Below are positions 15,955 to 59,488 of a stretch of 59,488 nucleotides of DNA, one piece after another. This DNA is from a virus, in the IMG/VR virus record IMGVR_UViG_3300028398_000004, positions 1-59,488 of that record. One strand, written 5' to 3'. The position numbers and the translations under genes were made by a program. The notes under the pieces were generated by a model. The model ran no database searches, was not told where the DNA came from, and was given only the letters and a program-made list of their open reading frames with translations. Each line of letters starts with the position of its first letter. The stretch's first letter is position 1.

Positions 15955-15968
15955 ACTTACTCTTGCAA

Positions 15969-23419: not shown

Positions 23420-24340
23420 ATGGGCGTTATTACTACAAGTAATTTTGCAAAAGATTTGGTGCCGGGAGTAAAGACCTGGTTTGGGCAAAAATATAAAGAA
23501 TATCCGATTGAATATTTGGATATTTTTGAAAAAGGGACATCTCAGCGGGCATTTGAGGAAGAAGCTGGTGTTACTGGTTTTGGGTTGGCTGCAGTAAAGA
23601 CTGAAGGTGCTGGCATTGCTTATGATGAGCAAGAACAGGGTTTTGTTAATCGTTATACACATGTAACGTATGGCTTGGGATTTATTATCACGCGTGAGAT
23701 GTATGAAGATGGTATTGCTGTAACGGTTGCCTTGCGTCGGGCTAATGCACTTGCTTTTTCTATTCGACAGACAAAAGAAACGATTGGTGCAAATGTGCTG
23801 AATCGTGCTTTTAATTCTGCTTATACGATGGGGGCAAGTTCTGATGGTAAAGAGCTTTGTGCAACTGATCACCCTAATAAAAGTGGAGGTATTTGGAGTA
23901 ATGAGCTTCAGACACCGGCTGATTTGAGTGAAGCTGCACTTGAGCAAGCATGTATTGATATTGCTAAGTTTAAGACTGATCGTGGACTGACGATTGCAAT
24001 TATGCCGCAGCAGTTGATTATTCCGACTGAACTTGAGTTTGAAGCTTATCGAATTCTTGATTCAATTGGACGTCCGGGAACTGATTTTAATGATATTAAT
24101 GCTATTAAGGCAAGTAAGAAGTTTCCGAAAGGTACTGCCGTAAATCATTACTTGACTGATCCTGATGCTTGGTTCATTAAGACAAATTGCCCTGATGGGC
24201 TAAAGTATATGGAACGTCGGCCTGATGCATTTGGTACTGAGAATGATTTTGATACGGAGAATGCTAAATTTAAAGCTACTTTTCGTGGTAGTTTTGGTTG
24301 GTCTGATCCGAGAGGTATTTTTGGTTCTCCGGGAGCGTAA
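23420..24340 (+). CDS. major capsid protein (HK97-fold type, inferred)
   Basis: 306 aa. AAGGAG RBS. Follows the scaffold-like genes and is followed by the strongest terminator in the window. Confidence 0.7.
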   Translation: MGVITTSNFAKDLVPGVKTWFGQKYKEYPIEYLDIFEKGTSQRAFEEEAGVTGFGLAAVKTEGAGIAYDEQEQGFVNRYTHVTYGLGFIITREMYEDGIAVTVALRRANALAFSIRQTKETIGANVLNRAFNSAYTMGASSDGKELCATDHPNKSGGIWSNELQTPADLSEAALEQACIDIAKFKTDRGLTIAIMPQQLIIPTELEFEAYRILDSIGRPGTDFNDINAIKASKKFPKGTAVNHYLTDPDAWFIKTNCPDGLKYMERRPDAFGTENDFDTENAKFKATFRGSFGWSDPRGIFGSPGA

Positions 24341-24444: not shown

Positions 24445-24690
24445 ATGGGTTATCGAGTAGGGGATTATAAAGTTATTTGTGATCGATGTGGATTTGAGAG
24501 ATATGCATCAGAGTGTCGAATGACTTGGGATAAGCTTTTTGTATGTGCAGATACTTGTTGGGAAGAAAAGCATCCTCAGTTTAGTGATCCTAAGCCTTTA
24601 GGGGAAAAACAAAAAGTGCCTGTTTATAGACCTGAGCCACCTGAAAATTTTATTGACCCAAGTAATCCTATTACTGGAGATGATTTATAA
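24445..24690 (+). CDS. zinc-ribbon virion-module protein (81 aa)
   Basis: Contains CDRCGF..C..C..CW..HPQ. Confidence 0.6.
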   Translation: MGYRVGDYKVICDRCGFERYASECRMTWDKLFVCADTCWEEKHPQFSDPKPLGEKQKVPVYRPEPPENFIDPSNPITGDDL

Positions 24691-25340
24691 TGGCAACGTT
24701 TGCGGAAATACAAGAACGAGTAAACGATCTTGTTCAAGATGATTTAGGTAATGATGACCTTATTCCAGCGTTAATTAATCAGGGAGTTTATGAAATTGCC
24801 GGTGGAATGCAGTCATTTTTAGCTGATGTAATTATTCCTCCTTTGCCTGAATTATTTAAGATTGATGTTGTGAGTACAGTTCCTGGGCAAGCATTTACTA
24901 ATATGCCAAATGATTTTCATAGGACATTACAATTTGCAGTTAATGAAAAAGGTACTGAAATTGATATAGCTGATTCTTTTATTGCTTTTTCTGAAATAGA
25001 TCCTTCAATGAGTAAAGTTGGAAGTATTATTGAAGTGATTGAGTATGGTAGAAAGTTATATTATTTAAATAGTCCTGTTGTAGCTGAAAATGTTATTGTG
25101 CATTATTATCGTAAGCCAGTTGTAATGGTTGCTGAGGGCGATATACCTGATGGAATTCCTGAACATTTACAAATGACTTTATTAGTTAATTTTGCTTGTT
25201 GGAAAGCATATGAATTTATTGAGGATGGTATTGAAGGTGATGCAGTGAACACACAAAAATATAAATCATTTTTCGCTGAAGCATTAAAAACGCTTGAAGT
25301 TACTATTCCTGATTATACTCGTGGATTAAAGTTACGTTAA
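24690..25340 (+). CDS. virion protein, possible head-tail adaptor (216 aa)
   Basis: Position only. TAATG overlap with the upstream ORF. Confidence 0.5.
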   Translation: MATFAEIQERVNDLVQDDLGNDDLIPALINQGVYEIAGGMQSFLADVIIPPLPELFKIDVVSTVPGQAFTNMPNDFHRTLQFAVNEKGTEIDIADSFIAFSEIDPSMSKVGSIIEVIEYGRKLYYLNSPVVAENVIVHYYRKPVVMVAEGDIPDGIPEHLQMTLLVNFACWKAYEFIEDGIEGDAVNTQKYKSFFAEALKTLEVTIPDYTRGLKLR

Positions 25341-25350
25341 AGGATAAGAT

Positions 25351-25731
25351 ATGTCGCGTGGAATAAAAGATTTTTATCGAGGAGATACAAGGACATACTC
25401 GATTGTTTCAAAAGCAAAAGATGGTAGTCCTTTATCACTTCATAATGCAAAACTTTTTATTACGTTTAAGAGTTCTCAATCATTGGCTGATGCTGATGCT
25501 GAATTACATAAAGTAATTAGTTTAACTGAAATTGATCCTAATAATCCTACTGGAGTAGCAACCATTAAATTAACTCATACAGATACAGAAATTACTCCTG
25601 GAACATATTGGTATGATTTTCAATTAGTATATGCTAACGGGGATGTTATTACTCTTATACCTAATCCTAAATGGGATAAAAAAGATAAGCAAGTTAAAGT
25701 TCATACTGACACTACAAGAGAGATTGCTTGA
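25351..25731 (+). CDS. small beta-rich virion protein (126 aa)
   Basis: YRGDTRTYSI..TGVATIKLTHTDTEITPGTYWYDFQL looks Ig/E-set-like. Confidence 0.5.
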   Translation: MSRGIKDFYRGDTRTYSIVSKAKDGSPLSLHNAKLFITFKSSQSLADADAELHKVISLTEIDPNNPTGVATIKLTHTDTEITPGTYWYDFQLVYANGDVITLIPNPKWDKKDKQVKVHTDTTREIA

Positions 25732-28202
25732 TGAGTTGTGATTGTATAAATGTACAAGTAATTGAAGAAGTAATTTCAGTTATTGTTACTGATGAACAAA
25801 TAGTTTCTGGTGAATTAACAGAAATTATTATTTGTGAATCACAATATTGTGGTGGTATTGAAGAGGCTCCTAAAGATGGTAATCAATATGCTCGGCAAGA
25901 TGGAGATTGGACTGAAGTAAGTATTCCTGTAGTGCCTGTAACTTCTGTATTTGGACGTACTGGAGATGTTGTTGCAGGTCAGAATGATTATACCTGGAAT
26001 CAAATAAATAAGACAGTTTCAAGTCTTGCTGATATTACTACTCGAAAGCATTCTGATCTTACCGAAATAGGCAATAATACCCACCCGCAGATTGATTCTC
26101 ATATTGCCAGGACTGATGTTCATTTTCTTGATGCCCCGGCAGATTCCAAACAATATGCAAGGCAAAATAATAACTGGGTTGAAGTTCAGGCTTCAGGTGG
26201 CGGATCACCATTTTTAAATTTTGAAAATATAACTTTTGCGGCATTACAAACAAAAATACAAAATGCAGAAATTGAGGTTGGCAAATATTACCGAATTACA
26301 GATTATTATTCGTTGAATAGTGCAGGTTTTGGAGAATATTATCAATCTCCTATAGAGCCAATAATTGTTCAAGGCTTGACCGCAAATCAAGTCTCGCTGC
26401 AATCGTATTCCGATACTCATAAAAATGATGTGATATTGTATGATATTACAGATAATCAAATAAACGATTCCGTTAATTTAGAATATGATACTGGAGATAA
26501 TAATGGAACTATAAATGTTTTATCAACGACGACTGATACGGTTGTTGTAGATCAAGAACCAATCCTGAATGATAATTTTTATTTTTATGCTGAAGATAAT
26601 GATGGTGGTGAAATAGAATATGAGTTTAATGGGTTGGGTAGTGATTTTACAGTAACTGACAATGGTAATAGCTCTTGGACTATTACTGATTTAACTGGAG
26701 ATATAAATTTTGCTCAACCTGATTACTCTTATATTGAAGGTGAGTGGGATTTGATTATAAATTTTCCAGGAAAAATTATTTATCGAGAAGACCCTCAGAA
26801 AAAGATAGTTTGTTATTTCGATTTCCGAAACCACAAATACTATCGTGCAAAAGCTGATTTAGGCAGTGTATCTACTTATGATTCAGGAACAACATATTCT
26901 GTACGCAAGATTGTTAAGTATAACGGCACCTTGTACGCAAGCAAGAATAATGACAATCACGGACATACGCCTACGGATCAAAACTTCTGGCACCGAATCT
27001 TAGGAAACGTTGCTGATTACTATCTATTTGCTGAAAATGGTTTTTACAATGCTGGAGGTAATATAAATATTTCTCAGCAGCAGAGCGACAGAGCTTTAGT
27101 TCCGGTCTTTGCGAAACAAAATGGGTCAACCTTTGTTTATGATGATTCAAGAGTAAAGAATACAAAACTGATTCGTCCGGACACAATATTTATTAACTTC
27201 AATGATGCTCCAGTAGTGGAAAATTGCGAGTTCAATACCGAAAAATTTACAGTTTATGCCTCAATAACATTTTCCAAGATAAGCAATGGTAGTAATTGCA
27301 CATTTACTGGACCAGCCTCTTATGTTGATTTTGGTTATATTTCTAGCTTATTTGTGGCCATGTATCTACAAAACTCATCCATAAATAATGCTTCAAGCAC
27401 AATGTTTGTCGGTTGTGCTTCAATGACTATTGATAAGATTTCCAATAGTTTATTGAAAGTTCAAAGGGTCGTTATCGGAAATAATAACCGGCAAATGGCT
27501 TTGTCCGGATCTGATATGACCTTTGGCAATAATAATTCTGATATTTCTATGAGAAATGGGAATTTCATTTCTTTTGGAAATTCCAATCAGCGGATTGAAT
27601 TTTATATGCATCCCCTTGCAAATGTAAAATTCGGGGATCAGAATAAATATTTGAAGTTCACGGGTAATAATGTATCTGCTGTAGAATTTAAAGATCGTTG
27701 TGGTAAGTACGGTCATTGGCATAATTTTACTTCCAATTTGATAGCATCTTATATCGGAACTTCCTGTTTTTGGAACGGGCAATCGACTGTTATACAGCTC
27801 ACAAATGTTACTTTGCAAGGCAATAACGAGAGAGTAAAAATCCCTCGTATATCTAATTCTGTTTTTGGATGGGGAGCCTCAGATATAACTTCATCGAGCG
27901 TGGACAATTGTGTATTTGGTGCGCGATGTTTTCATATAAACTTTAACAATACCAAGATGTATGGGTGTGTGTTTGATCCTGCTGTTCAAAACTTGAGTAT
28001 GGGTACAAGTGATCTTAATAAGAAGTTTACTCGGAATCAGGTGCATGCGAGTAATACTGATTATGGTTCAAGTGCAACTCATATTTTCAAAAATTATACG
28101 TGTGAGATTATTAACCTTGAAGCATCTGGAGTTAATTTACCAGTTAAATTGATGTATTACGATAATACAGGGGTTCAACAAATTGTTGATCCAGATACAT
28201 AA
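25728..28202 (+). CDS. tail fibre / receptor-binding protein
   Basis: 824 aa. The fibre-type motif is duplicated: APKDGNQYARQDGDWTEV and APADSKQYARQNNNWVEV. The C-terminal half is Asn-rich and repeat-like, suggesting a beta-helix. Confidence 0.65.
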   Translation: MMSCDCINVQVIEEVISVIVTDEQIVSGELTEIIICESQYCGGIEEAPKDGNQYARQDGDWTEVSIPVVPVTSVFGRTGDVVAGQNDYTWNQINKTVSSLADITTRKHSDLTEIGNNTHPQIDSHIARTDVHFLDAPADSKQYARQNNNWVEVQASGGGSPFLNFENITFAALQTKIQNAEIEVGKYYRITDYYSLNSAGFGEYYQSPIEPIIVQGLTANQVSLQSYSDTHKNDVILYDITDNQINDSVNLEYDTGDNNGTINVLSTTTDTVVVDQEPILNDNFYFYAEDNDGGEIEYEFNGLGSDFTVTDNGNSSWTITDLTGDINFAQPDYSYIEGEWDLIINFPGKIIYREDPQKKIVCYFDFRNHKYYRAKADLGSVSTYDSGTTYSVRKIVKYNGTLYASKNNDNHGHTPTDQNFWHRILGNVADYYLFAENGFYNAGGNINISQQQSDRALVPVFAKQNGSTFVYDDSRVKNTKLIRPDTIFINFNDAPVVENCEFNTEKFTVYASITFSKISNGSNCTFTGPASYVDFGYISSLFVAMYLQNSSINNASSTMFVGCASMTIDKISNSLLKVQRVVIGNNNRQMALSGSDMTFGNNNSDISMRNGNFISFGNSNQRIEFYMHPLANVKFGDQNKYLKFTGNNVSAVEFKDRCGKYGHWHNFTSNLIASYIGTSCFWNGQSTVIQLTNVTLQGNNERVKIPRISNSVFGWGASDITSSSVDNCVFGARCFHINFNNTKMYGCVFDPAVQNLSMGTSDLNKKFTRNQVHASNTDYGSSATHIFKNYTCEIINLEASGVNLPVKLMYYDNTGVQQIVDPDT

Positions 28203-41450: not shown

Positions 41451-44400
41451 ATGATAGATAATCAAACTATATCTAATCAAGTTAAGCAATCTAAGCAATC
41501 ACAGAATAATTCTGCTCCTGATTGGACATCTATTGAACAACATCCTGATTTTCAAACACTTGATTTTGCGACTCAAAAGAAAGCACGAAATAAATATTTT
41601 GATTCTTTCATTGCTCCGAGAGATGATTTTAAATCATTAGATTCTGATACTCAAGCATTAGCAAGAACTAAGTGGAATGATTGGACTCCTCCTGCAACAA
41701 AAGATCAGAATAGTGGATTAGCTGGGGATCTTGTTACTTCAGTTGAGAAAGGTGTGCTTGATTTACCAGGAATGGTTACAGGATTAGCTGATATTGTTCC
41801 TGCACTAATAACTGGTTCACGACCTTTTGATAAAATTACTGATACGATTGGTGAAGCAACTGGATTTCAACCAAGTAAATGGTCTAAGGAGCTTAATAAA
41901 GATTATTCACAGAAACATAAGCAGCAGCAATATAAAATTAATCAAGCATGGCAAGATAAAAATAAAACTGGTTGGGATGTTGCAGCAGAATATGCTAAAA
42001 ATCCTGGGTATGTTTTAAATCAAATTGCTGAATCATTACCAAGTATGGCTGTAGGTGGATTTGCTGGACGTGGAGCTATGCTTGCTGGAAAAGCAATTCC
42101 TGCATTAGAAGGAGTTGCAACTAAAATAGCTCCTGAAGCAATTGGATATTTAGAAAGAAAATTTGGTAAGGAAGCTGCTGCAGCTATTGCAGGTGGACTT
42201 GGTGAAGGATTAGTTCAGACTGGTCAATTAATGGATCAAGCCACTGGACAAGATCAACGAAAGAATGCAGTTGCTGCTCTTATATCTGGAGCTGCTGACG
42301 CACTTATTGCTGGTGGTGCTGGTAAAATAGCACAATCAATAGGTCTTGAAACAGCTGATACCTTGATGGCAAAAGGTTTACAAAGTAATCTGAAAAAAGA
42401 ACTTTCTTTAGGTAAAAGAGTTATTGGACGCACAGGGAAAATAACTGCTGGTGCTGCATCTGAAGGAGTTTTACAAGAGTTTCCTCAAAGTGCGCAAGAA
42501 CAAATTTGGCAAAACTATGCTGATGGAAAACCTTTGTTTGAAGGCGTCTCAAGAGCATCTATCGAAGGTGCTTTAGCAGGAATGTTTATAGGAGCTGGTG
42601 CAAATGCAATTAGCAATACATCTACAACGCCTGATACGAATACTTATGAAGGACAACTACAAAACCATGTAGATAATATTAAATCAAATGGAATTGATAA
42701 AATTCCTACCTCAATTGAAGCACTCACACAGAAGATAAATCAGAATAATCAAATGATGCAAGATCAAGAAACTCTTGATGCACTTGCAACAGAATCTGGC
42801 TATAAACCAGAAGAACTTCAATCATATCTTAAAGCTGAAAATAAATTTAATCAAGATTTAATAACGAAACTTCAGGAAGAGTTAGATAAGTCATCTGAAG
42901 AACAAGTATCTAAAAATACCACAGTTCAGCAAGCTTCAATTGATGAAGTTATAAATCAGCAACAAATAACTAATGCAGTACAACAAGCAAATCAAGAACA
43001 GCAAAAACAAGATCTAGATAATCGTATTAAGGCATTACGAAAAGCATATCTTAAAATGCCTGCATCTAATGAAAAAGAATCACTTGGAAATACAATTCTT
43101 AATCTTGTTAATGCACGAAAAGCATTAGATGAACAAACGATTCAAGAAGATCAATCATTTAAAACTACATTTCAACCAAGTAATGAACAAACTTCTTATA
43201 CTGATATATTAAAACAAAATAAAAATCCACAAGAACTAGCTCGTTCATTAAACTTATTAAATGAAGCTCCTGATGATCAAACAACTAACGAAGAAAAACA
43301 AGCCTTTTATGAGAAGTTGTTTAGTGCAATTCCTATTAATAAGGATGCAGCTGAGTCTGCAACAGTTATGCAGGAAAATCTTCCTCCAGAAATTTTAACT
43401 CAAAAAGGAACACCATACAAAAATCGTACAATATTAGAGAAACGTATATCATTGCTTGATAATGCAAATGATTATATAATTGTAGATACTCCTGAAGGAT
43501 TTATTGGAATTAAAAAGACATCAGTTACTGAAGACTCACTTGCGAATGATTCGCAAAGTTCGTTCAAAAATGAACAACAAATTCCAACAGCTTCGCAAGT
43601 TAATGAGCCTGTTCAAGTTATGTCTCCTATGGAGTTACAAGATAAACTTAATGCTAATCAACAACAACTTAATACTATTGTAGAGCAGCTTAAAACAACT
43701 ACTGATCCAGTTGAACAGCGAGCTTTACAAGAAGAAGGTGCATTACTGTATGAACAAAATACAGCGTTACAGACACAATTTGATAAACAAAATCAATCTA
43801 TTCAAAAACAACTGAATCAACCTATAACACTTGCAGAAGCAACTGCTGAGACAGCAAATATCGAACCGCAGTTTCAGACAACTGAGCAATTAAAAACTGC
43901 TCAGTTTAATTTTGTTAAAGATAATCATGGTAATGATCTTATAGGTTATCATGGAACAGCATCAGAACCCTTTGCTTCTTTTGATAATTCAAAAACACAA
44001 TCTTTTGAACATGGTTGGTCAGGTGATGGACATTATTTTACATTAAATAAAGATTATGCAAAAGGATATGCTGATATAGCAAATAATATTACTGGTAAAC
44101 CTGGTCGTATTATTGAGGCAAGATTTACTTTTAAAAATCCTTTATATAAAAATTCTCTTGAATATAAACAAATACTTAAAAATGCTATTGGGAAAATAAG
44201 TATTCTAACTAAAGAAGATGGTGTCAAAGCTACTAATGCCTTTAAACTTGCTGGTTATGATGCAGTTATTGATGGTCCTTCTCTAGATAAAGCATTTGAA
44301 ATTAATGTTTTTGATTCAAAAGATATTCATTATGCTCCTGGACAAAATCAATTCCAAACAACTGAACAGTCAAAAGTTAATCAAATTAATTTAGATAATA

Positions 44401-47400
44401 TTGAAAAAATATTTCCTGGGCAAGAAATTATTCAAGATACTAATAGAACGATTAACGTTCGATTTAAGAATGGTAAAGGATTAACAATTAAAAGCATTCA
44501 AGATGTTGGAGATGGCTTTATTCAGTTAGCTATTGAAACTGGACAAATGTCAAAGAATGGTAAAATTCTTGGTATTACTCAAGGAAATAATATATTATTA
44601 AATGAAAACTTTGCAGATGATAGAACATTATGGCATGAAAATAAACATGTTCTTGATAATCTTGGAATTATTACAAAAGAAGATAATGCAGCATTAAATA
44701 AAGAATTTAATAAACTTCGTCGTGTTGGTAAGCTTGAATTTGCTCTTAGTACTCATGAAGATCCTATCAAGCGAATGGAAGAAAATCGGGCTAATATGTT
44801 TGCTCAAATTATGGCAAACCGAGAAGCATATCGAAACACTATATTTGGTAAAGTAATTCAGCGTGTGATGGACTTCTTTCAACGATTACTTGCATTTGGA
44901 AAACAAACTATTGCAGGATTAGCTCGTGAAGTTGAGACAGGAAAAATCTATGAGCGTAAAGTTAATGGACAAACTGTTCAAACTACTGTACCACAATCGG
45001 AAGTAATGGCTGAAAAGTGGTATTCAGCTGTAGAGAATGCAGTGAAAGGTTTTCAGCAAAAACAAGCTTTGCCTGAGCAATGGAAAGGAATGATTAAAAA
45101 TATTCCTGGAGTTAAACAAACAGAACTTGATTGGATTGGTCTAGATGATTGGCTTGATAAACAAAAAGGTAAAGTTACTAAAGATGCTTTATTGAAGTTT
45201 ATTCAAGATAATAATGTTCAACTTGAAGAAGTTGTTAAGGAACAAAATTTTCTTACTGAGAAGGAATTAGATAATCTTTATATTGAATTAGTGCATAAAA
45301 ATGGTTATGATAATTCACAAGATATGCCAGAAGAAATAAAACAAAAAGTTACTAAAGAATATAATATTTTATTAGATCAATATGGAAGAAATCGTACACG
45401 TTTTAATGATGCTGATTATGTATTACCTAATGGAAAAAATTATAAAGAACTTTTAATTACATTAGAAAATAATTCAAATAGTAATTATCAATCTGATCAT
45501 TTTGACGAACCCAATATTTTAGCTCATGTAAGATTTAATGAACGTACTGATGCTGATGGAAATAAAGTTTTATTTATTGAAGAAATTCAAAGTGATTGGC
45601 ATCAAGAAGGACGTAAACTAGGTTATCAAAAATATCCTACTTTTAATGTAATTAAAAAATATGCTAAACAACGAGGCATTAGAATTGATACTCCGCCTTA
45701 TAAAGATTTATCTGCAAAAGTATTAAGACAATTACGTCAAGCTGCTGATAAAGAAGGAGAAAGTGCTTTATTAGAAGATGTATTAGATCAACATACTAAA
45801 GAAATAGATTCTTTAGAATATGGAGAGAAAGTTCCTAATGCACCAATGAAAAAAACTTGGCCATTACTTGCAATGAAGCGAATGGTTCGATATGCAGCAG
45901 AGAATGGTTTTGATAAAATTGCATGGACAACTGGAAAACAACAAGGAGCTCGTTATGGAAGTCCAGGTTTTAAATGGCTAAAACACCCTGATGGGTCTAT
46001 TGAAGTAGCTGCTAATCCTCAAATTAATGATCTTAATGCAGATGCTTGGAATAATTATAGTTTTATTGAAACAACTATAAAAACAATACAAAATAAACAA
46101 GAACTTTATGATTATATTGAAAAAACACTTGATGCTCAGATAGGAGAATATAGTCCAGAAAATTGGAAAAAATATATAACTGAGCAAACTAACAAATTAT
46201 GGAAACAAATACATGATTCTTTTGAGGGAATTTATTATCCTCGTTTAGAAGGTATGAAAGGATTTTATAATAAGGCCTTACCTCAAATACTTAATAAAGA
46301 GTTTAATAAAGGTAAATGGGGAAAAGCAAAAGTTGAGATTATTGATTTACCTGATATTGGTCAGCAATTAGCTTTACCAATTACTAAACGAATGAAAAAG
46401 AAAGCTCTTCGTGAAGGCATGCCACAATTTAAAGCACGAGAACTTTCAGTACCTGAACAAGCTCTTGGAGGATTATTAAATAAAAAGACTGATACAAATA
46501 CTCCTGAATTTAAGAAATGGTTTAATGGTTCAATAGCAGTTAAGCCTGATGGTTCTCCGATTGAATTTTATCATGGGACGAATGAAGTATTTGATACATT
46601 TGATCCAAATAAAGAATCAAAAACAACTCATACTACATCTACATTAGGACATTTTTTTACTACTGATAAGAAAACTGCTTCTGCATATGGACAGCATGTG
46701 TTACCAGTTTATTTACATATTCAGAATCCATATAAAATGTCTTTTCAAGAAGCAACTTCCTTGAAAACTCTTGAAGAATCAAAACAACGTCAACAAGAAC
46801 TTATTAATGAAGGATATGATTCTATAATAATGGAAACAGGAACAAATCCTTATGTTATTGTTTTTGATTCAAGCCAAGTAAAATCAGTTTATAATCAAGG
46901 CAATTGGAAAGCTGCTGATAATATTTATTTTGAAACTAGAGAACAAACAGAACCTAAGCAAAAGATTTCTGATGCGGAATATAACGAGCTTTTTAAACAG
47001 AAAGCAAATCTTATTCAAAAGTTTATTCAAACAGCAAAAATTCATGCACGCGATTTAAAGCATTTAACTGATCGTTTGACTGGCTCGATTTCAACTCGTT
47101 TAGCAAATGCTAATCCAATGTTACGTGATAAAGTTCGACGATTAGATTTTGATACATCGCAAAGAATTATTAAAATATTGCATACGGCTAAACCATTGCT
47201 TGATAGTCTTAGTAAAATGTTTCCAGAAGATAAACATGCTTGGAACATTGCAAGAATACAAGGTGATACAGCTAAAATAAATCAAATTGCTGAGCGATAT
47301 GGCTTACAGGAACATCAAGAAAAACTTAGGGAAGAGTTGAATCAAATTCGTCAAGATGCTCGAGATGTTGGTTATGATGTTGGTTTCATTGATGAGTATT

Positions 47401-49322
47401 GGCCACGAATAATCAAAGATACCGAAGGTTTCTTGAAAGCAACTCAAGAAATATCTCAACACCCTGAATTTACTGATGCACTAAAAGAAAAAGCTAAACA
47501 AATGGGAATTTCATTTGAACAGCTTAATAGTGAGTTCCCTGAAATTCGTGCTGATGTTATTAGTAATATGATTTTAGGTAAGCATCCTGGAATTGGTGGT
47601 CCTGGAAATATTAAAAGTCGTGTATATGATACTGTACCAAAAGAACTTTTACCATATTATATGAATTCTGATGCAGCGCTGATGCGATATATTTATTCAA
47701 TGTCAAAAAAGATTGAAGCTCGAAAATTCTTTGGAAAGATTCCACAAAAAGTTCAGTTACATAAACTTGCAATAGCTAAAGCAAAAGCAGAGTTATTACA
47801 AATAGGTAATCTCAAAGGGCAAGAGAAACGTAAAAATGAACTTAATGATCTAATTAAACTTCACGAAGAAAAATTAAATCAATATAAAGAACAACGAGAT
47901 TATACTGAAAATATTGGTGCTTATGTTGATGAATTAATGCTTACAGGTAAATTACATAAGAAAGATGAACATATTGTTCGTCAAATACTTAATGCAAGAT
48001 TTAATGAGCATGGAACAACAGGTATTGTAAATGCTTATAAAAATATGGCCTATATTGATGTTATGGGTAGTGTTACATCTGCAATGACACAAATAGCCGA
48101 TACTGTTTGGGCAGCTTATGTAGGTAAGGTATGGACACCTAAAGGATTCTTACGTACTGCTCAAAATATTGCTCGTGCAATTATAGGTAAATCTAAAATG
48201 ACTAAAGAAGAATTAGGCATTGAAAGAATTGCACAAGAATTTGCAGATGGTACAACTTTAGGCAAAGCGGTAAGTAAAGTATTTTGGGCAGTTGGATTAA
48301 CTAAACTTGATTCTATTGGAAAAGAAGCATTATTAAATAATGTTTTAATGAACTATCAAGATCAAGTTAAAACCCAATCAGGAATAGAAGCTCTTAAAAA
48401 GAAAATTCGTCCTACTTTTGGTCGTGAAACTGATCAAGTAATTAAAGATTTAATCTCAGGAGAACATTCTGATAATGTTAAAATGTTAGTTTATTCACGA
48501 GTATTAGATTTTCAACCAGTTGCCTTATCTGAAATGCCAGAGTTTTACCTGAATGGAGGCAATCGACGAGTATTTTATATGTTGAAAACATTTACTTTAA
48601 AGCAAATGGATGTATTTCGTAATGAAGTATTTCATGAACTTGCAAGTAAAGATCCTAAACGAGTTGCACAAGGTATAAAAAATATGGTTGCCTTAACCTC
48701 ATTACTTGTATTAGCTAATGCAGGAGTTGATGAATTAAAAGATTATGTACTTGGAAAAGAAACAAGATTCAAAGATAATGTTATTGAGAATTTTATGTCT
48801 TTAGGTGGAGCATCACGTTATATGCGGATGCAAGTAACAAGGAAAGGAATTTTCTCTGCTGGTATGCAACAAATATTACCACCATTTAAATTCTTTGATG
48901 CAGTTGGATCAGACATCCATGAGAAGATTGTCACAGGTGATATTGCTAAAGGTTTAAGATCAGTTGATTCAATACCTTTATTTGGTAAGCTTTGGTATTG
49001 GCATTATGGTCGTGGATCACAATTAAAAAGAACATTGAATGAACAGGATTTTTCTAAAGTAGGGAAAAAAGTTAGAAAATTTCAAAAGCAGCTTGATAAA
49101 GCAATAAATAAAAGATTATTCTTACAAACACATCCAACTGAATTTAAACAAATGATGCTTTATAAGAATATAAGTAAGTCATTAAATAAAAATAAAAAAA
49201 TGATTAACTCATTAAAGAAACTAAAGCAAACTCCGTTGATATTGAAACGTATCGGGCAATTAGAAAAACAACAAAAGTTAATCTATGCCCGATACTTTGA
49301 AATGGCTAAAAAGATTCAATAA
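41451..49322 (+). CDS. giant polyvalent-type virion protein (2623 aa)
   Basis: Uninterrupted ORF, last gene of the structural arm. Gly/Ala-rich hydrophobic N-terminal region. Two ART-like modules, an HExxH module and a long helical C-terminal region. Confidence 0.85.
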   Translation: MIDNQTISNQVKQSKQSQNNSAPDWTSIEQHPDFQTLDFATQKKARNKYFDSFIAPRDDFKSLDSDTQALARTKWNDWTPPATKDQNSGLAGDLVTSVEKGVLDLPGMVTGLADIVPALITGSRPFDKITDTIGEATGFQPSKWSKELNKDYSQKHKQQQYKINQAWQDKNKTGWDVAAEYAKNPGYVLNQIAESLPSMAVGGFAGRGAMLAGKAIPALEGVATKIAPEAIGYLERKFGKEAAAAIAGGLGEGLVQTGQLMDQATGQDQRKNAVAALISGAADALIAGGAGKIAQSIGLETADTLMAKGLQSNLKKELSLGKRVIGRTGKITAGAASEGVLQEFPQSAQEQIWQNYADGKPLFEGVSRASIEGALAGMFIGAGANAISNTSTTPDTNTYEGQLQNHVDNIKSNGIDKIPTSIEALTQKINQNNQMMQDQETLDALATESGYKPEELQSYLKAENKFNQDLITKLQEELDKSSEEQVSKNTTVQQASIDEVINQQQITNAVQQANQEQQKQDLDNRIKALRKAYLKMPASNEKESLGNTILNLVNARKALDEQTIQEDQSFKTTFQPSNEQTSYTDILKQNKNPQELARSLNLLNEAPDDQTTNEEKQAFYEKLFSAIPINKDAAESATVMQENLPPEILTQKGTPYKNRTILEKRISLLDNANDYIIVDTPEGFIGIKKTSVTEDSLANDSQSSFKNEQQIPTASQVNEPVQVMSPMELQDKLNANQQQLNTIVEQLKTTTDPVEQRALQEEGALLYEQNTALQTQFDKQNQSIQKQLNQPITLAEATAETANIEPQFQTTEQLKTAQFNFVKDNHGNDLIGYHGTASEPFASFDNSKTQSFEHGWSGDGHYFTLNKDYAKGYADIANNITGKPGRIIEARFTFKNPLYKNSLEYKQILKNAIGKISILTKEDGVKATNAFKLAGYDAVIDGPSLDKAFEINVFDSKDIHYAPGQNQFQTTEQSKVNQINLDNIEKIFPGQEIIQDTNRTINVRFKNGKGLTIKSIQDVGDGFIQLAIETGQMSKNGKILGITQGNNILLNENFADDRTLWHENKHVLDNLGIITKEDNAALNKEFNKLRRVGKLEFALSTHEDPIKRMEENRANMFAQIMANREAYRNTIFGKVIQRVMDFFQRLLAFGKQTIAGLAREVETGKIYERKVNGQTVQTTVPQSEVMAEKWYSAVENAVKGFQQKQALPEQWKGMIKNIPGVKQTELDWIGLDDWLDKQKGKVTKDALLKFIQDNNVQLEEVVKEQNFLTEKELDNLYIELVHKNGYDNSQDMPEEIKQKVTKEYNILLDQYGRNRTRFNDADYVLPNGKNYKELLITLENNSNSNYQSDHFDEPNILAHVRFNERTDADGNKVLFIEEIQSDWHQEGRKLGYQKYPTFNVIKKYAKQRGIRIDTPPYKDLSAKVLRQLRQAADKEGESALLEDVLDQHTKEIDSLEYGEKVPNAPMKKTWPLLAMKRMVRYAAENGFDKIAWTTGKQQGARYGSPGFKWLKHPDGSIEVAANPQINDLNADAWNNYSFIETTIKTIQNKQELYDYIEKTLDAQIGEYSPENWKKYITEQTNKLWKQIHDSFEGIYYPRLEGMKGFYNKALPQILNKEFNKGKWGKAKVEIIDLPDIGQQLALPITKRMKKKALREGMPQFKARELSVPEQALGGLLNKKTDTNTPEFKKWFNGSIAVKPDGSPIEFYHGTNEVFDTFDPNKESKTTHTTSTLGHFFTTDKKTASAYGQHVLPVYLHIQNPYKMSFQEATSLKTLEESKQRQQELINEGYDSIIMETGTNPYVIVFDSSQVKSVYNQGNWKAADNIYFETREQTEPKQKISDAEYNELFKQKANLIQKFIQTAKIHARDLKHLTDRLTGSISTRLANANPMLRDKVRRLDFDTSQRIIKILHTAKPLLDSLSKMFPEDKHAWNIARIQGDTAKINQIAERYGLQEHQEKLREELNQIRQDARDVGYDVGFIDEYWPRIIKDTEGFLKATQEISQHPEFTDALKEKAKQMGISFEQLNSEFPEIRADVISNMILGKHPGIGGPGNIKSRVYDTVPKELLPYYMNSDAALMRYIYSMSKKIEARKFFGKIPQKVQLHKLAIAKAKAELLQIGNLKGQEKRKNELNDLIKLHEEKLNQYKEQRDYTENIGAYVDELMLTGKLHKKDEHIVRQILNARFNEHGTTGIVNAYKNMAYIDVMGSVTSAMTQIADTVWAAYVGKVWTPKGFLRTAQNIARAIIGKSKMTKEELGIERIAQEFADGTTLGKAVSKVFWAVGLTKLDSIGKEALLNNVLMNYQDQVKTQSGIEALKKKIRPTFGRETDQVIKDLISGEHSDNVKMLVYSRVLDFQPVALSEMPEFYLNGGNRRVFYMLKTFTLKQMDVFRNEVFHELASKDPKRVAQGIKNMVALTSLLVLANAGVDELKDYVLGKETRFKDNVIENFMSLGGASRYMRMQVTRKGIFSAGMQQILPPFKFFDAVGSDIHEKIVTGDIAKGLRSVDSIPLFGKLWYWHYGRGSQLKRTLNEQDFSKVGKKVRKFQKQLDKAINKRLFLQTHPTEFKQMMLYKNISKSLNKNKKMINSLKKLKQTPLILKRIGQLEKQQKLIYARYFEMAKKIQ
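43900..44340 (+). other. ART-like module 1 inside the giant protein
   Basis: ..LIGYHGTASEPFASFD..SGDGHYFTLNKDYAKGYA..IIEARFTFKNPLY..AGYDAVID..AFEINVFDSKDI. His codon at 43950. Confidence 0.5.
44634..44648 (+). other. HExxH (HENKH) zinc-metallopeptidase-like motif inside the giant protein
   Basis: The codons cat gaa aat aaa cat were read in frame. Context is RTLWHENKHVLDNLG. Confidence 0.45.
46505..46890 (+). other. ART-like module 2 inside the giant protein
   Basis: EFKKWFNGSIAVKPDGSPIEFYHGTNEVFDTFD..TLGHFFTTDKKTASAYG..VLPVYLHIQNPY..EGYDSIIMETGTNPYVIVFDSSQV. His codon at 46572. Confidence 0.55.
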
Positions 49323-49333
49323 TTAAAACAATC

Positions 49334-49358
49334 AAAAATATAATAATCTTATATTTTT
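49334..49358. terminator. AT-only 10-bp hairpin at the convergence point of the two arms (possible bidirectional terminator)
   Basis: AAAAATATAA-taatc-TTATATTTTT, between stop 49322 (plus strand) and stop 49369 (minus strand). Confidence 0.4.
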
Positions 49359-49368
49359 ACTTGTTTTA

Positions 49369-49974
49369 TTATAAATCACCAAAAACATTTGGAGCATACA
49401 TTAATAATGTATCATGAATCTCATGAGCTATTGGCCTAATTTGTGGATGGGCGACTTTTGCTCCTCGTAAAGAGATAAAATGCCGCCACTCACGAAAATT
49501 AGCTTTCATTATAATTTCTGTTTTCAAACAATTAGGTAATACTGATCGAGCAATCTGAGGGGTACAATTAGAATCAAGTAGGTTAAAATAACTTTGTTCT
49601 GCTACCAAACAAGCTTCTCTCCAAATGATTTTTTGTTCTGCATTTAAATTTGGAGGCATAATAAATGTACATTCATTATTGAATTTAGCAGAAGAATAAT
49701 TGCAATACCTGGTAGATTCTTGAGCATAACTTGCAAGTCGATGTCGCACAATTTCATGAGAAATTCCACGATCAGTAACAACACGAAATGATGCTTCAGC
49801 ATGCTCAATCATTGCATGATGCCCTAAATTAACTAATCTTCTAATAAATTTACCTGCTGATTCAGATGTTATTTTATCTTCACTTTTATAACAAGTTCTG
49901 CCAGCTCTTTCAATTTGTATTTCTGGATCTTTAGTAATCCATAATAATTGTACTGATGGTTTAACAATTTTCAT
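49369..49974 (-). CDS. thyX: flavin-dependent thymidylate synthase
   Basis: 201 aa. ThyX signature RHRLASYAQESTRY (RHR..S..ES.R). Confidence 0.9.
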   Translation of the reverse strand: MKIVKPSVQLLWITKDPEIQIERAGRTCYKSEDKITSESAGKFIRRLVNLGHHAMIEHAEASFRVVTDRGISHEIVRHRLASYAQESTRYCNYSSAKFNNECTFIMPPNLNAEQKIIWREACLVAEQSYFNLLDSNCTPQIARSVLPNCLKTEIIMKANFREWRHFISLRGAKVAHPQIRPIAHEIHDTLLMYAPNVFGDL

Positions 49975-50170
49975 TTTGTTGCTCCTTTATTAAGGTTTTT
50001 AATTGATATAACTTATTAATATTATGATCTAATTTTTGTATATCATAAGTAATTTGAGTTAAGCATTCATTATATAATTGCTTATGTAAAAATTCACGCA
50101 ATAAATTAAAATCAATTTTAGGAATAAATTCATCGAAATATTCTTTAGGAGTAAGTTTATCATGAGGCAT
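49961..50170 (-). CDS. hypothetical protein (69 aa)
   Basis: Track ORF trimmed to the Met at 50170, which has GGAG 7 nt upstream. Confidence 0.55.
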   Translation of the reverse strand: MPHDKLTPKEYFDEFIPKIDFNLLREFLHKQLYNECLTQITYDIQKLDHNINKLYQLKTLIKEQQNENC

Positions 50171-50501
50171 TCTTATTCTCCTTTTTAAATAAATATCTGA
50201 TTTTAACTGGAATACCTGATGCTTTTGCTTTATCAATACCATATTGCATACCTTTTGATATACCAAAATCAGCATATACTACTGTAGCTTCTGCAACTGA
50301 TCGCCATGCAAGTCCTGCATCAATTCCCATTTGACGTTCTTCAGAAATATTATCATCTAATATATTTGGTTGAGTATATAAAAGATGACTTGCAATAGGA
50401 GCTTCTCCATGAAGTAAACTATCACGAACGCATTTTCTTGCATATTGAATGTTTCGTGGAATAAATCCAGCGTAAGGACTTTCAAGAATAACTCTTTTCA
50501 T
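50160..50501 (-). CDS. nucleoside 2-deoxyribosyltransferase-fold-like protein (DUF4406-like, tentative)
   Basis: 113 aa. ILESPYAG..GEAPIASHLLYTQ..ERQMGIDAGLAW..VVYADFGISKGMQYGI. The assignment is from memory of the ESP(Y/F)AG phage family. Confidence 0.4.
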   Translation of the reverse strand: MKRVILESPYAGFIPRNIQYARKCVRDSLLHGEAPIASHLLYTQPNILDDNISEERQMGIDAGLAWRSVAEATVVYADFGISKGMQYGIDKAKASGIPVKIRYLFKKENKNAS

Positions 50502-53941: not shown

Positions 53942-54529
53942 TTAATTTTTATTTTTAATATAATTGCCCCATTGATCTACAATAGCTTGAGCAATTCCAG
54001 GAAAAGTCATTGAACGTAATCTTGCACGATTCTTTGATATAGGCATATTATAAATTAAATCTTTTCGTTCTTTCACAATATTTGTTGGAATTAATCGAGG
54101 AAGGTTTTTTCGAGCAAATCCAGTTGTTTTATTAATCGGATGTCCAAATTGCCAAGGATGAATATATTGAACATTAGATAAATATTTAAAAATTACAGAA
54201 CTTGGATTTTCTAATGCTACATGTGGAGCAATTTCACAAGCCCTTTTCCATAATATTTTTGTCCATTCAATAGCGAGTTGACGTTGTTCATATTTAGGTT
54301 TACCCTTAGCATAATATCTATTACCTGATAAGCACATCGCTGTACATGGTGGATGAAGAATAATTAATGTCCATTGATCTTTTTGTAAAACATCAAAAAT
54401 ATTCATTTGATAATGATATTTAGAATCACCTTGAGTTGGACGTAAGTCACAGCTATAAGTATCAAAGCCAGCTTTACGAAAAGTCTGGCAAAGTATTTGC
54501 GATTCTTCGCAACCTATTAATATTTTCAT
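53942..54529 (-). CDS. minimal C5-cytosine-methyltransferase-like protein lacking a target-recognition domain
   Basis: 195 aa. PPC (LHPPCTAM), ENP (ALENPSS) and a C-terminal SKNRARLRSMTFPGIAQAI resemble Dcm motifs IV, VI and IX-X. Motif I is atypical (IGCEESQ). Confidence 0.45.
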   Translation of the reverse strand: MKILIGCEESQILCQTFRKAGFDTYSCDLRPTQGDSKYHYQMNIFDVLQKDQWTLIILHPPCTAMCLSGNRYYAKGKPKYEQRQLAIEWTKILWKRACEIAPHVALENPSSVIFKYLSNVQYIHPWQFGHPINKTTGFARKNLPRLIPTNIVKERKDLIYNMPISKNRARLRSMTFPGIAQAIVDQWGNYIKNKN

Positions 54530-57798: not shown

Positions 57799-59220
57799 TT
57801 AAATTCCATCTACATCAGCTGATATTCCAAGAAAGTTTTCTAACCTGACATAAAATTCAGGAATATATTTTTGACTTTTATCACATCCAATAGGCATCAT
57901 ATTAGCTTTAGCCGCACTAATCAGACAATTCCCTGAACCTGCAAAAGGGCTTAAAAAAATTGTTCCAGGTTTACCAAGTGCTTTTATAAAATGATCATAA
58001 AGCTCTATTGGTTTTTCCCATTGATGAATACGATTAGCACTTGCAACTGTTTCAACACTAATTGCGGATAACATACTGGAAACATTAAATTGTGCTTCAC
58101 CTTTACGCATGACAAGATACATTTCCCAATTACTAATCATATTCTTTTTAGGAATATTTGTACTTCCACCTTTTTTAATCCATGCCCCAGGCTGCTGAAC
58201 AATAAATCCAATATCTTGAGCTATTTTAGTTATTTCAATAAAATGTTCTTTTCCTGTCCAACATAATAACCAGCTTCCATCAAGCATTTTCTGATAAATC
58301 AATGGAAGATAATTAAAATAAAATTCATAAAGTTCTTTTTCAGTCCAATCGGTAGCTTTACTTTTAATCTTTGATGTTTTTCCATATATCTTATTAAAAT
58401 TAATTGCATATGGAGGATCAAGTTCTACCATACCAACTGAATTATCAGGTACTTTATTAAGAAATGTTTTATAATTTTCAGCAACATAAATAACTTGAAT
58501 TTTACGTTGAGCTACTTTTTCTGTTTCTATGACAACTTTTTTTGCCTCATCTGCTTTTTCTTTAGTATATTCAACAGATTTAGCAACTACATCAGGCACA
58601 GTATTTTTTATAGGTATTTCAGTCACTCCAGCCTGAAGATCCATTAAACGTTTCTTTTCTTCATCACTAAAACTATCCATACGTTGAATTGCAGCCGCTT
58701 GATTACCAAGACGTTTATAAAGTTCTTTTGCACGGCTTTTCGTAGTTTGTTCTTTTAATTCAGGAAATACTTTTAATGCTTCTGCAAAAGCAAGATCTGT
58801 TGATAGGCCACCTAAACTACATTTCAAACGCTTAGCTGTTTCACGATAGCCCCAAGATTTTCCTTCTTGTTCAGCAGCACTTTTCCAAAAATTATGAAGC
58901 TTATACTTAAGTTCAATTTCTTCATGCCATTTAAATTCTTTTCGATCCATATTAGCAAGCAATTCAATCAATGTATGATCATCTTGGCTAATACCATCAA
59001 TCACTCGAACCTCAATTGTGTCTCTGCCAAGATGTTCAATAGCACGAATACGATGAAGTCCATCAATCAGTACATTATCTGAATTAACTAAAACTGGAGC
59101 TAATTGACCAACCATTGCAATAGAATCAGCTAATGATGATACATCACCTACATCCATTCTTGCACGATCTTTAATAATAATATCTTTAACAAGTTTTTCC
59201 TCTATCTGAAAAAATTTCAT
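57799..59220 (-). CDS. ParB-like N-terminal domain fused to an N6-adenine/N4-cytosine DNA methyltransferase
   Basis: 473 aa. ParB box LIDGLHRIRAIEHLG. Methyltransferase motif IV ELDPPYA comes before motif I SPFAGSGN (beta-class order). Confidence 0.85.
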   Translation of the reverse strand: MKFFQIEEKLVKDIIIKDRARMDVGDVSSLADSIAMVGQLAPVLVNSDNVLIDGLHRIRAIEHLGRDTIEVRVIDGISQDDHTLIELLANMDRKEFKWHEEIELKYKLHNFWKSAAEQEGKSWGYRETAKRLKCSLGGLSTDLAFAEALKVFPELKEQTTKSRAKELYKRLGNQAAAIQRMDSFSDEEKKRLMDLQAGVTEIPIKNTVPDVVAKSVEYTKEKADEAKKVVIETEKVAQRKIQVIYVAENYKTFLNKVPDNSVGMVELDPPYAINFNKIYGKTSKIKSKATDWTEKELYEFYFNYLPLIYQKMLDGSWLLCWTGKEHFIEITKIAQDIGFIVQQPGAWIKKGGSTNIPKKNMISNWEMYLVMRKGEAQFNVSSMLSAISVETVASANRIHQWEKPIELYDHFIKALGKPGTIFLSPFAGSGNCLISAAKANMMPIGCDKSQKYIPEFYVRLENFLGISADVDGI

Positions 59221-59258: not shown

Positions 59259-59488
59259 TTATTTATTTATTACTTTTAAATTATTAGCATTACTTTCAAT
59301 TGCTTTGATAACCTCTTCAAAACCATCAATTTTTGATTGTATTTTTATAAGATTAATAAGTATAGGATATAAAGATAAAAAATCATCATCGTTTGGCCAT
59401 CGACCATAATCAAATATTTTTGCAATTTTAATTTGAAGCTCTTGTTTTTTATCTTTTTGATATTTAAGCTCTATTATTAATTCATTCA
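59259..59488 (-). CDS. junction-spanning hypothetical protein (76 aa), start codon cut by 1 nt at the window edge
   Basis: Same ORF as 1..128. Full product: MNELIIELKYQKDKKQELQIKIAKIFDYGRWPNDDDFLSLYPILINLIKIQSKIDGFEEVIKAIESNANNLKVINK. TAA at 59259-59261. Confidence 0.55.
   Translation of the reverse strand, partial: NELIIELKYQKDKKQELQIKIAKIFDYGRWPNDDDFLSLYPILINLIKIQSKIDGFEEVIKAIESNANNLKVINK
59362..59488. repeat. Terminal duplication copy 2 (identical to 1..127)
   Basis: Base-by-base comparison with 1..127. Offset is 59361, so the unique genome length is 59,361 bp. Confidence 0.95.

Follow-up and report, generated by a model that had tools for sequence, protein, structure and literature searches.

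Polyvalent proteins of phages and conjugative elements were described by Iyer, Burroughs, Anand, de Souza and Aravind in 2017 (PMC5512222) as a class predicted to be packaged in the virion and injected, in which ADP-ribosyltransferase (ART) and metallopeptidase (MPTase) domains are the commonest (see also PMC9503650). Giant phage proteins that combine one to many ART-PolyVal domains with HExxH metallopeptidases are the commonest polyvalent theme (PMC5512222), and the published examples include a protein of Roseovarius Plymouth podovirus 1 that contains a virion RNA polymerase (vRNAP) and an ART, and a Pseudomonas aeruginosa prophage protein with 12 ART copies. Here we describe a giant gene in the virus record IMGVR_UViG_3300028398_000004, of which the whole stretch of 59,488 nucleotides was analyzed (the window). 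The gene occupies positions 41451..49322 on the plus strand and encodes a protein of 2623 amino acids. We consider it likely that the product is a polyvalent protein, expressed late and probably packaged in the virion, in which a fixed scaffold made of an N-terminal domain of ~370 residues and a C-terminal domain of ~790 residues carries swappable effector modules. The protein is a fairly ordinary member of the described class, and it adds architectural detail and no new principle.

The window protein shares with the published polyvalent proteins a giant multidomain build, a setting among late virion genes, the pairing of multiple ART-PolyVal domains with an HExxH module, and homologues that bear MuF-C and LPD domains. 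It differs from them in having no RNA polymerase, no methylase-helicase dyad and no ArdC-N domain, and in that four of its parts, the N-terminal domain, the HExxH module, a large region that we call module B, and the C-terminal domain, match no Pfam model and have no solved relative. The gene is a single open reading frame (ORF) with an ATG start and zero internal stops, the stop codon being included in the coordinates, and it is the last in the virion-gene arm; a protein already on record (P0001) is identical to the 2623-residue product. ORF and gene-order analysis thus bore out the unbroken 7.9-kb frame at the end of the structural arm that a sequence-only reading of the window had described, and all the motifs quoted in that reading lie where it had placed them. 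From its N terminus the protein consists of the N-terminal domain, a Gln/Asn-rich linker, the cargo (ART1, the HExxH module, module B and ART2, in this order) and the C-terminal domain, and every one of these features is encoded on the plus strand.

To the sequence-only reading the product had looked like one of the polyvalent proteins described by Aravind and colleagues, and the homology search agrees that it belongs to the class of Iyer et al. 2017. The window protein has 266 homologues at an E value of 1e-3 or below; among those listed, lengths range from 1764 to 4577 residues, and the domains present are LPD1, LPD3, LPD5, LPD38, LPD39, InPase, PBECR1, MuF-C, ddrB-ParB and ART-PolyVal. The large size, the disparate domains, the place among virion genes and the >100 homologues with LPD, InPase, PBECR or ART domains all speak for the assignment: the multidomain chain of 2623 residues, its neighborhood of late virion genes and its homology network with polyvalent proteins are the features by which the class is recognized. 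An NCBIfam search with the whole protein gave no family, and a DNA-level search of a phage collection with the giant gene gave no match.

Both ART-like modules score above the curated gathering threshold of the Pfam ART-PolyVal model (PF18760; 31.2 bits), the family to which the sequence-only reading had likened them. The canonical copy, ART2, at 46488..46940 (aa 1680-1830), matches the model over aa 1700-1816 with 83.7 bits (E value of 2.7e-23), and ART1, at 43914..44366 (aa ~822-972), matches it over aa 824-965 with 48.8 bits (E value of 1.6e-12). On these scores the two modules are placed in ART-PolyVal far beyond chance, and they are only 26% identical to each other. In ART1 the characteristic motifs are GYHGT (aa 832-836; nucleotides 43944-43958), GDGHYFT (aa 858-864), KNPLY (aa 895-899) and AFEINVFD (aa 948-955), and in ART2 they are FKKWFNG (aa 1687-1693), FYHGT (aa 1706-1710), LGHFFT (aa 1732-1737), IQNPY (aa 1757-1761) and PYVIVFD (aa 1800-1806). 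An alignment of 107-119 ART domains from relatives gave the family signature as F..WF..S, YHGT, G-x-(Y/F)-F-T, A..Y, NP, GYDG and F-x-P-x-QIKS. The FKxWF...YHGT opening, named earlier as typical of the family, is indeed part of this signature, with F in 84 of 87, W in 86 of 87 and the second F in 80 of 87 domains, and H in 96 of 107. ART1 has neither the FKxWF opening nor the QIKS tail and is for this reason the more divergent of the two.

The active site of ART-PolyVal has been described as a histidine in strand 1, a tyrosine in strand 2 and an aspartate in strand 5 (Iyer et al. 2017, PMC5512222). The histidine column (YHGT, strand 1), with H in 96 of 107 domains, is occupied by H834 in ART1 and H1708 in ART2. 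Only one Asp is near-invariant across the family (100 of 107), that of the GYD motif; it is D937 in ART1 and D1790 in ART2, and we assign it to strand 5 by elimination, from the alignment and not from a structure. At the strand-2 position ART1 has Y862 and ART2 has F1735, in a column that holds Tyr in 47, Phe in 32 and His in 6 of 105 domains, and a second aromatic residue, in the A..Y motif, is kept in both copies (Y873 and Y1746). The phenylalanine of ART2 in place of the tyrosine of the H-Y-D triad, and the score of only 48.8 bits for an ART1 that lacks the FKxWF and QIKS flanks, could mean that one or both ARTs are catalytically inactive and have a binding or structural role. We regard this as unlikely, given that the His and the GYD Asp are kept in both copies and that Y873 and Y1746 are both present. 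Since Phe is found at strand 2 in 32 of 105 family members, F1735 is, as far as the alignment can tell, a normal ART-PolyVal variant. The sequence-only reading had noted a Glu in the FEINVF motif of the first module where the second has Val, and had suggested that one copy is active and one degenerate. This suggestion has no basis, because the column of Glu950 is not conserved (Glu in 18 of 99 family domains), and the two copies retain the same His and GYD Asp.

The ART profile was also compared with solved structures, where its top matches in the PDB were the catalytic domains of exotoxin A and cholix toxin, at sub-threshold E values of 0.07-0.2 that are not significant. In this alignment YHGT pairs with the catalytic-histidine motif VGYHGT of the toxins, and the G-x-Y/F...A..YA stretch pairs with the toxin tyrosine strand GFYIAGDPALAYGYA. 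The aligned stretches of exotoxin A, VGYHGT and GFYIAGDPALAYGYA, hold H440, Y470 and Y481 in the numbering of that toxin. The match is coherent with the assignment of the family to the H-Y-[EDQ] clade (PMC5512222), and it is too weak to count as significant evidence of it. In the catalytic domains of exotoxin A, cholix and diphtheria toxin, which are H-Y-E ARTs, the third catalytic residue is a glutamate, whereas the window ARTs have the GYD aspartate, and the window protein lacks the receptor-binding and translocation domains of these toxins. A Pfam scan of the window protein gave no ADPrib_exo_Tox or Alt-like match. The R-S-E clade of the T4 Alt and VIP2 type was considered for the two modules and ruled out by their YHGT, G-x-Y/F-F-T and GYD motifs, which are those of the H-Y-D class. 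The logic proposed to be shared with T4 Alt is that of an ART carried in the virion, delivered with the DNA and modifying host proteins (PMC5512222, PMC9503650). Alt differs in belonging to the R-S-E clade and in that its activity and injection have been shown by experiment, whereas the window ARTs are of the H-Y-D class, lie within a protein of 2623 residues and are known from sequence.

Between the ARTs, the HExxH module occupies 44436..45002 (aa 996-1184) and belongs to an uncharacterized family with a gluzincin-like motif. The motif itself, HENKH, lies at aa 1062-1066 (nucleotides 44634-44648), with H1062, E1063 and H1066 followed by D1069 and by E1111 (nucleotides 44781-44783), 45 residues downstream of the motif. 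Searched by word index, the HExxH segment alone yielded a single relative; an exhaustive profile search covering 1.84 billion representatives yielded 224 at an E value of 0.001 or below, most of the 150 listed being longer than 1000 residues and the longest reaching 5613. Across 148 aligned relatives, which are 25-60% identical to the window module, conservation is 99% for H1062, 100% for E1063 and H1066, 99% for E1111 and 98% for A1114, and an acidic residue prevails at position 1069 (Glu in 66% of the relatives, Asp in the window). A lone HExxH would be expected by chance in ~7% of proteins of this size, as estimated from residue frequencies, and HENKH is not such a chance motif because it is near-invariant across the 148 homologues. 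An AlphaFold2 (AF2) model built on 34 sequences (mean predicted local distance difference test, pLDDT, of 76) has a four-stranded sheet followed by the HExxH helix (model residues 62-76) and further helices, of which helix 110-127 carries E1111. The pLDDT exceeds 90 in the helical core, this helix included, and the N-terminal sheet is of low confidence. An HExxH helix after a sheet, with a glutamate on a later helix, is the arrangement described for zincin-like MPTases (PMC5512222). From the alignment and the model we take this region to be a real and strongly constrained module with the signature of a gluzincin-like metal site.

The designation metallopeptidase-like, which came from the sequence-only reading, stands in part. 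The motif and its downstream Glu are 99-100% conserved and the predicted topology is compatible with it; what the searches did not return is a significant match, in profile or in fold, to a peptidase or a zincin. Judged by the refuting condition that the sequence-only reading had set for itself, its zincin part is therefore unproven. In Pfam the HExxH segment itself gave no peptidase match, a PDB profile search with the module gave nothing relevant, and a Foldseek search with the AF2 model found no zincin in the PDB or BFVD, a weak negative in view of the low-confidence sheet. The top Foldseek matches were Lsm proteins in the PDB (E value of 0.12) and uncharacterized proteins in BFVD (E value of 0.06). 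A weak pairwise match of the HExxH...E stretch to aa 1913-1956 of gp60 of phage H66 (E value of 0.26) was followed as a possible link to a peptidase and rejected; Pfam gives an adjoining methyltransferase there and no peptidase. Compared with the zincin-like MPTases of polyvalent proteins (Pfam MPTase-PolyVal; regions of P1 DdrB and N4 vRNAP), the window module has in common the HExxH helix after a sheet, the Glu on the following helix and a place between other domains. An acidic residue three positions past the motif, as in the window module, has been described for one phage-type MPTase clade. The His described for the end of strand 2 in that clade did not emerge as a conserved column when the 148 sequences were aligned, and no profile or fold match links the window module to MPTase-PolyVal or to other peptidase families.

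These results leave room for the module to be another metal-dependent hydrolase, or a metal-stabilized helical adaptor that works with module B, an alternative that we think rather unlikely. It gains from the failure of all 34 diverse members to match a Pfam peptidase family significantly (0 of 34, two of them reaching Tox-MPTase2 at a marginal E value of 0.03), from the lack of a zincin among the Foldseek matches in the PDB and BFVD, and from the tight dyad of HExxH module and module B seen in 20 or more relatives. Yet gluzincins are defined by just this arrangement, an HExxH preceded by a beta-sheet and a Glu ~45 residues on in the next long helix; among the MPTases of polyvalent proteins Iyer et al. 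distinguish 12 divergent clades, many of them unrelated to known ones; and the module also occurs without module B, abutting the C-terminal domain, in 17 cases. We therefore infer a metallopeptidase, one that fits no defined peptidase family.

Module B, at 45009..46445 (aa 1187-1665), is an uncharacterized region of ~480 residues that in relatives is usually found directly downstream of the HExxH module, within a few residues. It includes FIEEIQSDWHQEG at aa 1375-1387, and its invariant polar residues are H1350, N1355, H1359, R1361, R1365, E1377, E1378, Q1380, S1381, D1382 and Q1385. It has no Pfam match and no PDB profile match, and its AF2 model has a pLDDT of 74. Two candidates were considered for it. 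One GNAT family adjoins ART in polyvalent proteins (PMC5512222), and GNATs head the Foldseek matches of module B; this assignment was rejected as unsupported, the matches reaching only E values of 0.05-0.6 with TM scores below 0.3 and hhalign against SSAT1 and RimI (sequences entered by hand) giving a probability below 1%. Module B might instead be LPD28, which associates with an MPTase (PMC5512222), though no Pfam LPD model matches it. Homologues of part of module B are also present in cyanophages, inside genes labeled "lysin" in Nostoc phage Nsp-JY18 (PP438410.1) and Microcystis phage Mel-JY33 (PP438424.1), a label that probably stems from another domain of those large proteins. The module is present as well in Dolichospermum phage Dfl-JY45 and Pelagibacter phage HTVC028P.

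The two ends of the protein are its conserved frame. The N-terminal domain, at 41628..42740 (aa ~60-430), aligns with >100 homologues and is the most widely shared part of the protein, and it is N-terminal in every relative examined. It matches phrog_30335 (E value of 4e-24) and has no match in Pfam or NCBIfam. The domain is rich in Gly and Ala, which make up 42% of aa 201-300, and hydropathy gives it three moderately hydrophobic segments. The linker that follows, at 42741..43895 (aa ~431-815), is of low conservation, with few homologues aligning; Gln and Asn account for 22-28% of three of the four 100-residue blocks of aa 401-800 and for 13% of aa 601-700. The composition thus agrees with the hydrophobic Gly/Ala-rich N-terminal region and the Q/N-rich linkers reported earlier. 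At the other end, the C-terminal domain, at 46953..49319 (aa 1835-2623), spans ~790 residues, is 53% identical to the corresponding part of the relatives P0003-P0005, has one hydrophobic segment (aa 2408-2426) and is C-terminal in every relative examined. It is encoded on at least 139 IMG/VR contigs, the longer of which are 55-68 kb, and gave no match in a tblastn search of cultured phages, in Pfam or in a PDB profile search. Probably the N-terminal domain handles virion incorporation or delivery and the C-terminal domain acts as a structural or delivery scaffold. A set of metagenomic proteins of ~2000 residues (P0096-P0118) has ~25% identity to the C-terminal domain (window aa ~1874-2500) and carries sigma-70 region 4 domains (PF04545, PF08281) and PcfJ (PF14284), which suggests that a transcription factor, too, can be cargo of this scaffold.

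Relatives keep the N-terminal and C-terminal domains, and the cargo between them varies. One relative (P0002) has ART-MPT-ART without module B, P0003 has module B only, P0004 the HExxH module only and P0005 none of the cargo modules, and P0006 and P0007 carry InPase, LPD and ART domains. Cargo was also counted at 71 IMG/VR loci, at which only ~2000 residues upstream of the C-terminal domain are visible. The HExxH module is present at 43 of the 71, module B at 28, an ART at 13, two ARTs at 2, and ART, HExxH module and module B together at 4. Within 40 residues after the HExxH module, the next element at these loci is module B in 20 cases, the C-terminal domain in 17 and an ART in 5. As judged from these alignments, the window protein is a cargo-rich combination within a combinatorial family and not a singular architecture. 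The sequence-only reading had called two ART-like modules plus a metallopeptidase-like module unusual, but ART with metallopeptidase is the commonest published theme, and several relatives combine both. The gene for P0003 (locus L001) likewise stands at the end of a virion arm, with the same synteny, on contig JAEHJW030014757.1 (66950 bp) of NCBI assembly GCA_016276955.3. The contig numbering of that assembly exceeds 14,000, and the contig probably stems from a phage, or its bacterial host, that was sequenced along with a larger organism.

This pattern of conservation can be turned around. The protein might be chiefly a structural internal-core or ejection protein, with a role like that of the large internal proteins of other podoviruses, in which the N-terminal and C-terminal domains are the essential parts, for example by forming or gating a conduit for DNA delivery, and the ART, HExxH and B modules are dispensable passengers. 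The end domains are the conserved parts, many relatives have little cargo (the C-terminal domain alone, MPT-C, or none in P0005), the N-terminal domain has hydrophobic Gly/Ala-rich segments and the C-terminal domain one hydrophobic segment, and the gene is always at the end of the structural arm. We hold this to be a real, if minority, possibility. It is compatible with the effector reading, and the enzyme-like invariant residues of the cargo argue for selection on activity; moreover, the searches brought up no solved ejection or core protein that resembles it.

For the polyvalent reading, the question of packaging turns largely on phage H66. Residues 31-307 of H66 gp60 match the N-terminal domain of the window protein with 32% identity over ~300 residues (pairwise E value of 1e-21). 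In GenBank the printed note on gp60, "verified by mass spectrometry as part ...", breaks off at this point, and the one on the neighboring gp54 reads "... as part of the virion". Together with its F116 and LKA5 orthologues, gp60 (Hollowayvirus; "PLxRFG domain-containing protein"; 3787 residues for gp60) has the N-terminal domain in common with the window protein and is likewise the giant last gene of a podovirus structural arm. The cargo of H66 gp60 is a methyltransferase with LPD23 and LPD3 and no ART, its C-terminal domain is unrelated to that of the window protein, and the PLxRFG motif is missing from the latter. From the gene position, the gp60 annotation and the model of Iyer et al., we infer virion packaging and injection of the window protein. 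That the protein is unpackaged and does its work late in the infected cytoplasm, like T4 ModA and ModB, which act after expression from the phage genome, seems to us very improbable: the gene runs co-linear with the virion genes and closes their arm both here and at the P0003 locus, and the N-domain homologue gp60 carries the mass-spectrometry note.

Several points weigh against the polyvalent effector reading as a whole. Packaging and injection of the window protein are predicted on indirect grounds, and its link to H66 amounts to ~32% identity over ~300 residues of one domain. We found no paper that reports a biochemically characterized ART-PolyVal member, so that activity and targets are extrapolated; ART2 has a Phe and not the canonical Tyr at strand 2, and ART1 is without the flanking family motifs. 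None of the 34 HExxH members gave a significant match to a Pfam peptidase family, and the N-terminal and C-terminal domains, which make up ~45% of the protein, are uncharacterized.

With these points in mind, the polyvalent reading suggests the following course of events. The protein would be made with the structural proteins and built into the capsid or core via its conserved end domains, and at infection it would leave the podovirus-type particle with or before the DNA. In the host the two H-Y-D-class ARTs would use NAD+ to ADP-ribosylate host macromolecules, probably proteins, with takeover or a blunted defense as the outcome. The HExxH module, which always lies directly upstream of another module, would probably be an autoprocessing peptidase that frees or activates the modules downstream. 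We put forward more tentatively that the N-terminal and C-terminal domains form a dedicated protein-delivery scaffold of a large uncultured clade of podovirus-like phages of ~55-68 kb, with combinatorial cargo, and that the HExxH module and module B are a new enzyme dyad; in this proposal the dyad would consist of an autoprocessing metalloprotease and a new effector enzyme whose active site is marked by the invariant His, Arg, Glu and Asp residues.

The gene lies in what is probably a complete phage genome of ~59.4 kb, since bases 1-127 of the window recur as an exact repeat at 59362-59488, an end overlap of 127 bp that marks either a circularly closed assembly or a short terminal redundancy. 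The window has a G+C content of 33% and contains no tRNA genes. The virion-gene arm, on the plus strand, starts with the terminase (15963-17474) and continues with the portal (17630-19825), the capsid protein (23420-24340; Pfam Phage_capsid_4), an SU10-type adaptor (24690-25340; PF24175, E value of 1e-16) and a fiber (25728-28202). The nearest cultured relatives of the portal are in Alcaligenes phage QDWS535, Roseobacter phages CRP-901 and CRP-902, and Pelagibacter phages HTVC023P and HTVC027P. By homology, the adaptor, the capsid protein and the portal relatives support a podovirus-type particle. On the minus strand the replication arm, with thymidylate synthase, primases, an exonuclease, DNA polymerase A and methyltransferases, converges on the giant gene. 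Between the giant-gene stop and the convergent thymidylate-synthase gene there is a gap of 46 bp (49323-49368), in which no terminator-like hairpin or site and no promoter-like site was detected.

Some further features of the window are recorded here. The minus-strand gene at 611-2365 encodes an NAD-dependent DNA ligase (phrog_3869, E value of 2e-97) and therefore a second phage-encoded NAD+-consuming activity besides the two ART domains. A gene at 57799-59220 (minus strand) encodes a fusion of an N-terminal ParB-like nuclease/partition domain with a C-terminal DNA methyltransferase, and a second methyltransferase is encoded at 53942-54529. Two minus-strand ORFs, 49961-50275 (104 residues) and 50160-50501 (113 residues), overlap by 116 bases, and it is unlikely that both start assignments are real.

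The HExxH family, module B, the tight dyad that they form and the N...C scaffold shared among many uncultured phages of ~60 kb appear to be undescribed in the collections searched, and we offer them as leads and not as findings. Of all phage proteins, the polyvalent ones are predicted to act earliest in an infected cell. The window protein is a compact and complete example on a closed 59-kb genome, with two apparently intact ARTs, a conserved HExxH...E and three large regions outside database families, and it may serve as a test case for the host targets of head-delivered H-Y-D ARTs, for self-cleavage by the HExxH module and for the role of the end domains in packaging and ejection.

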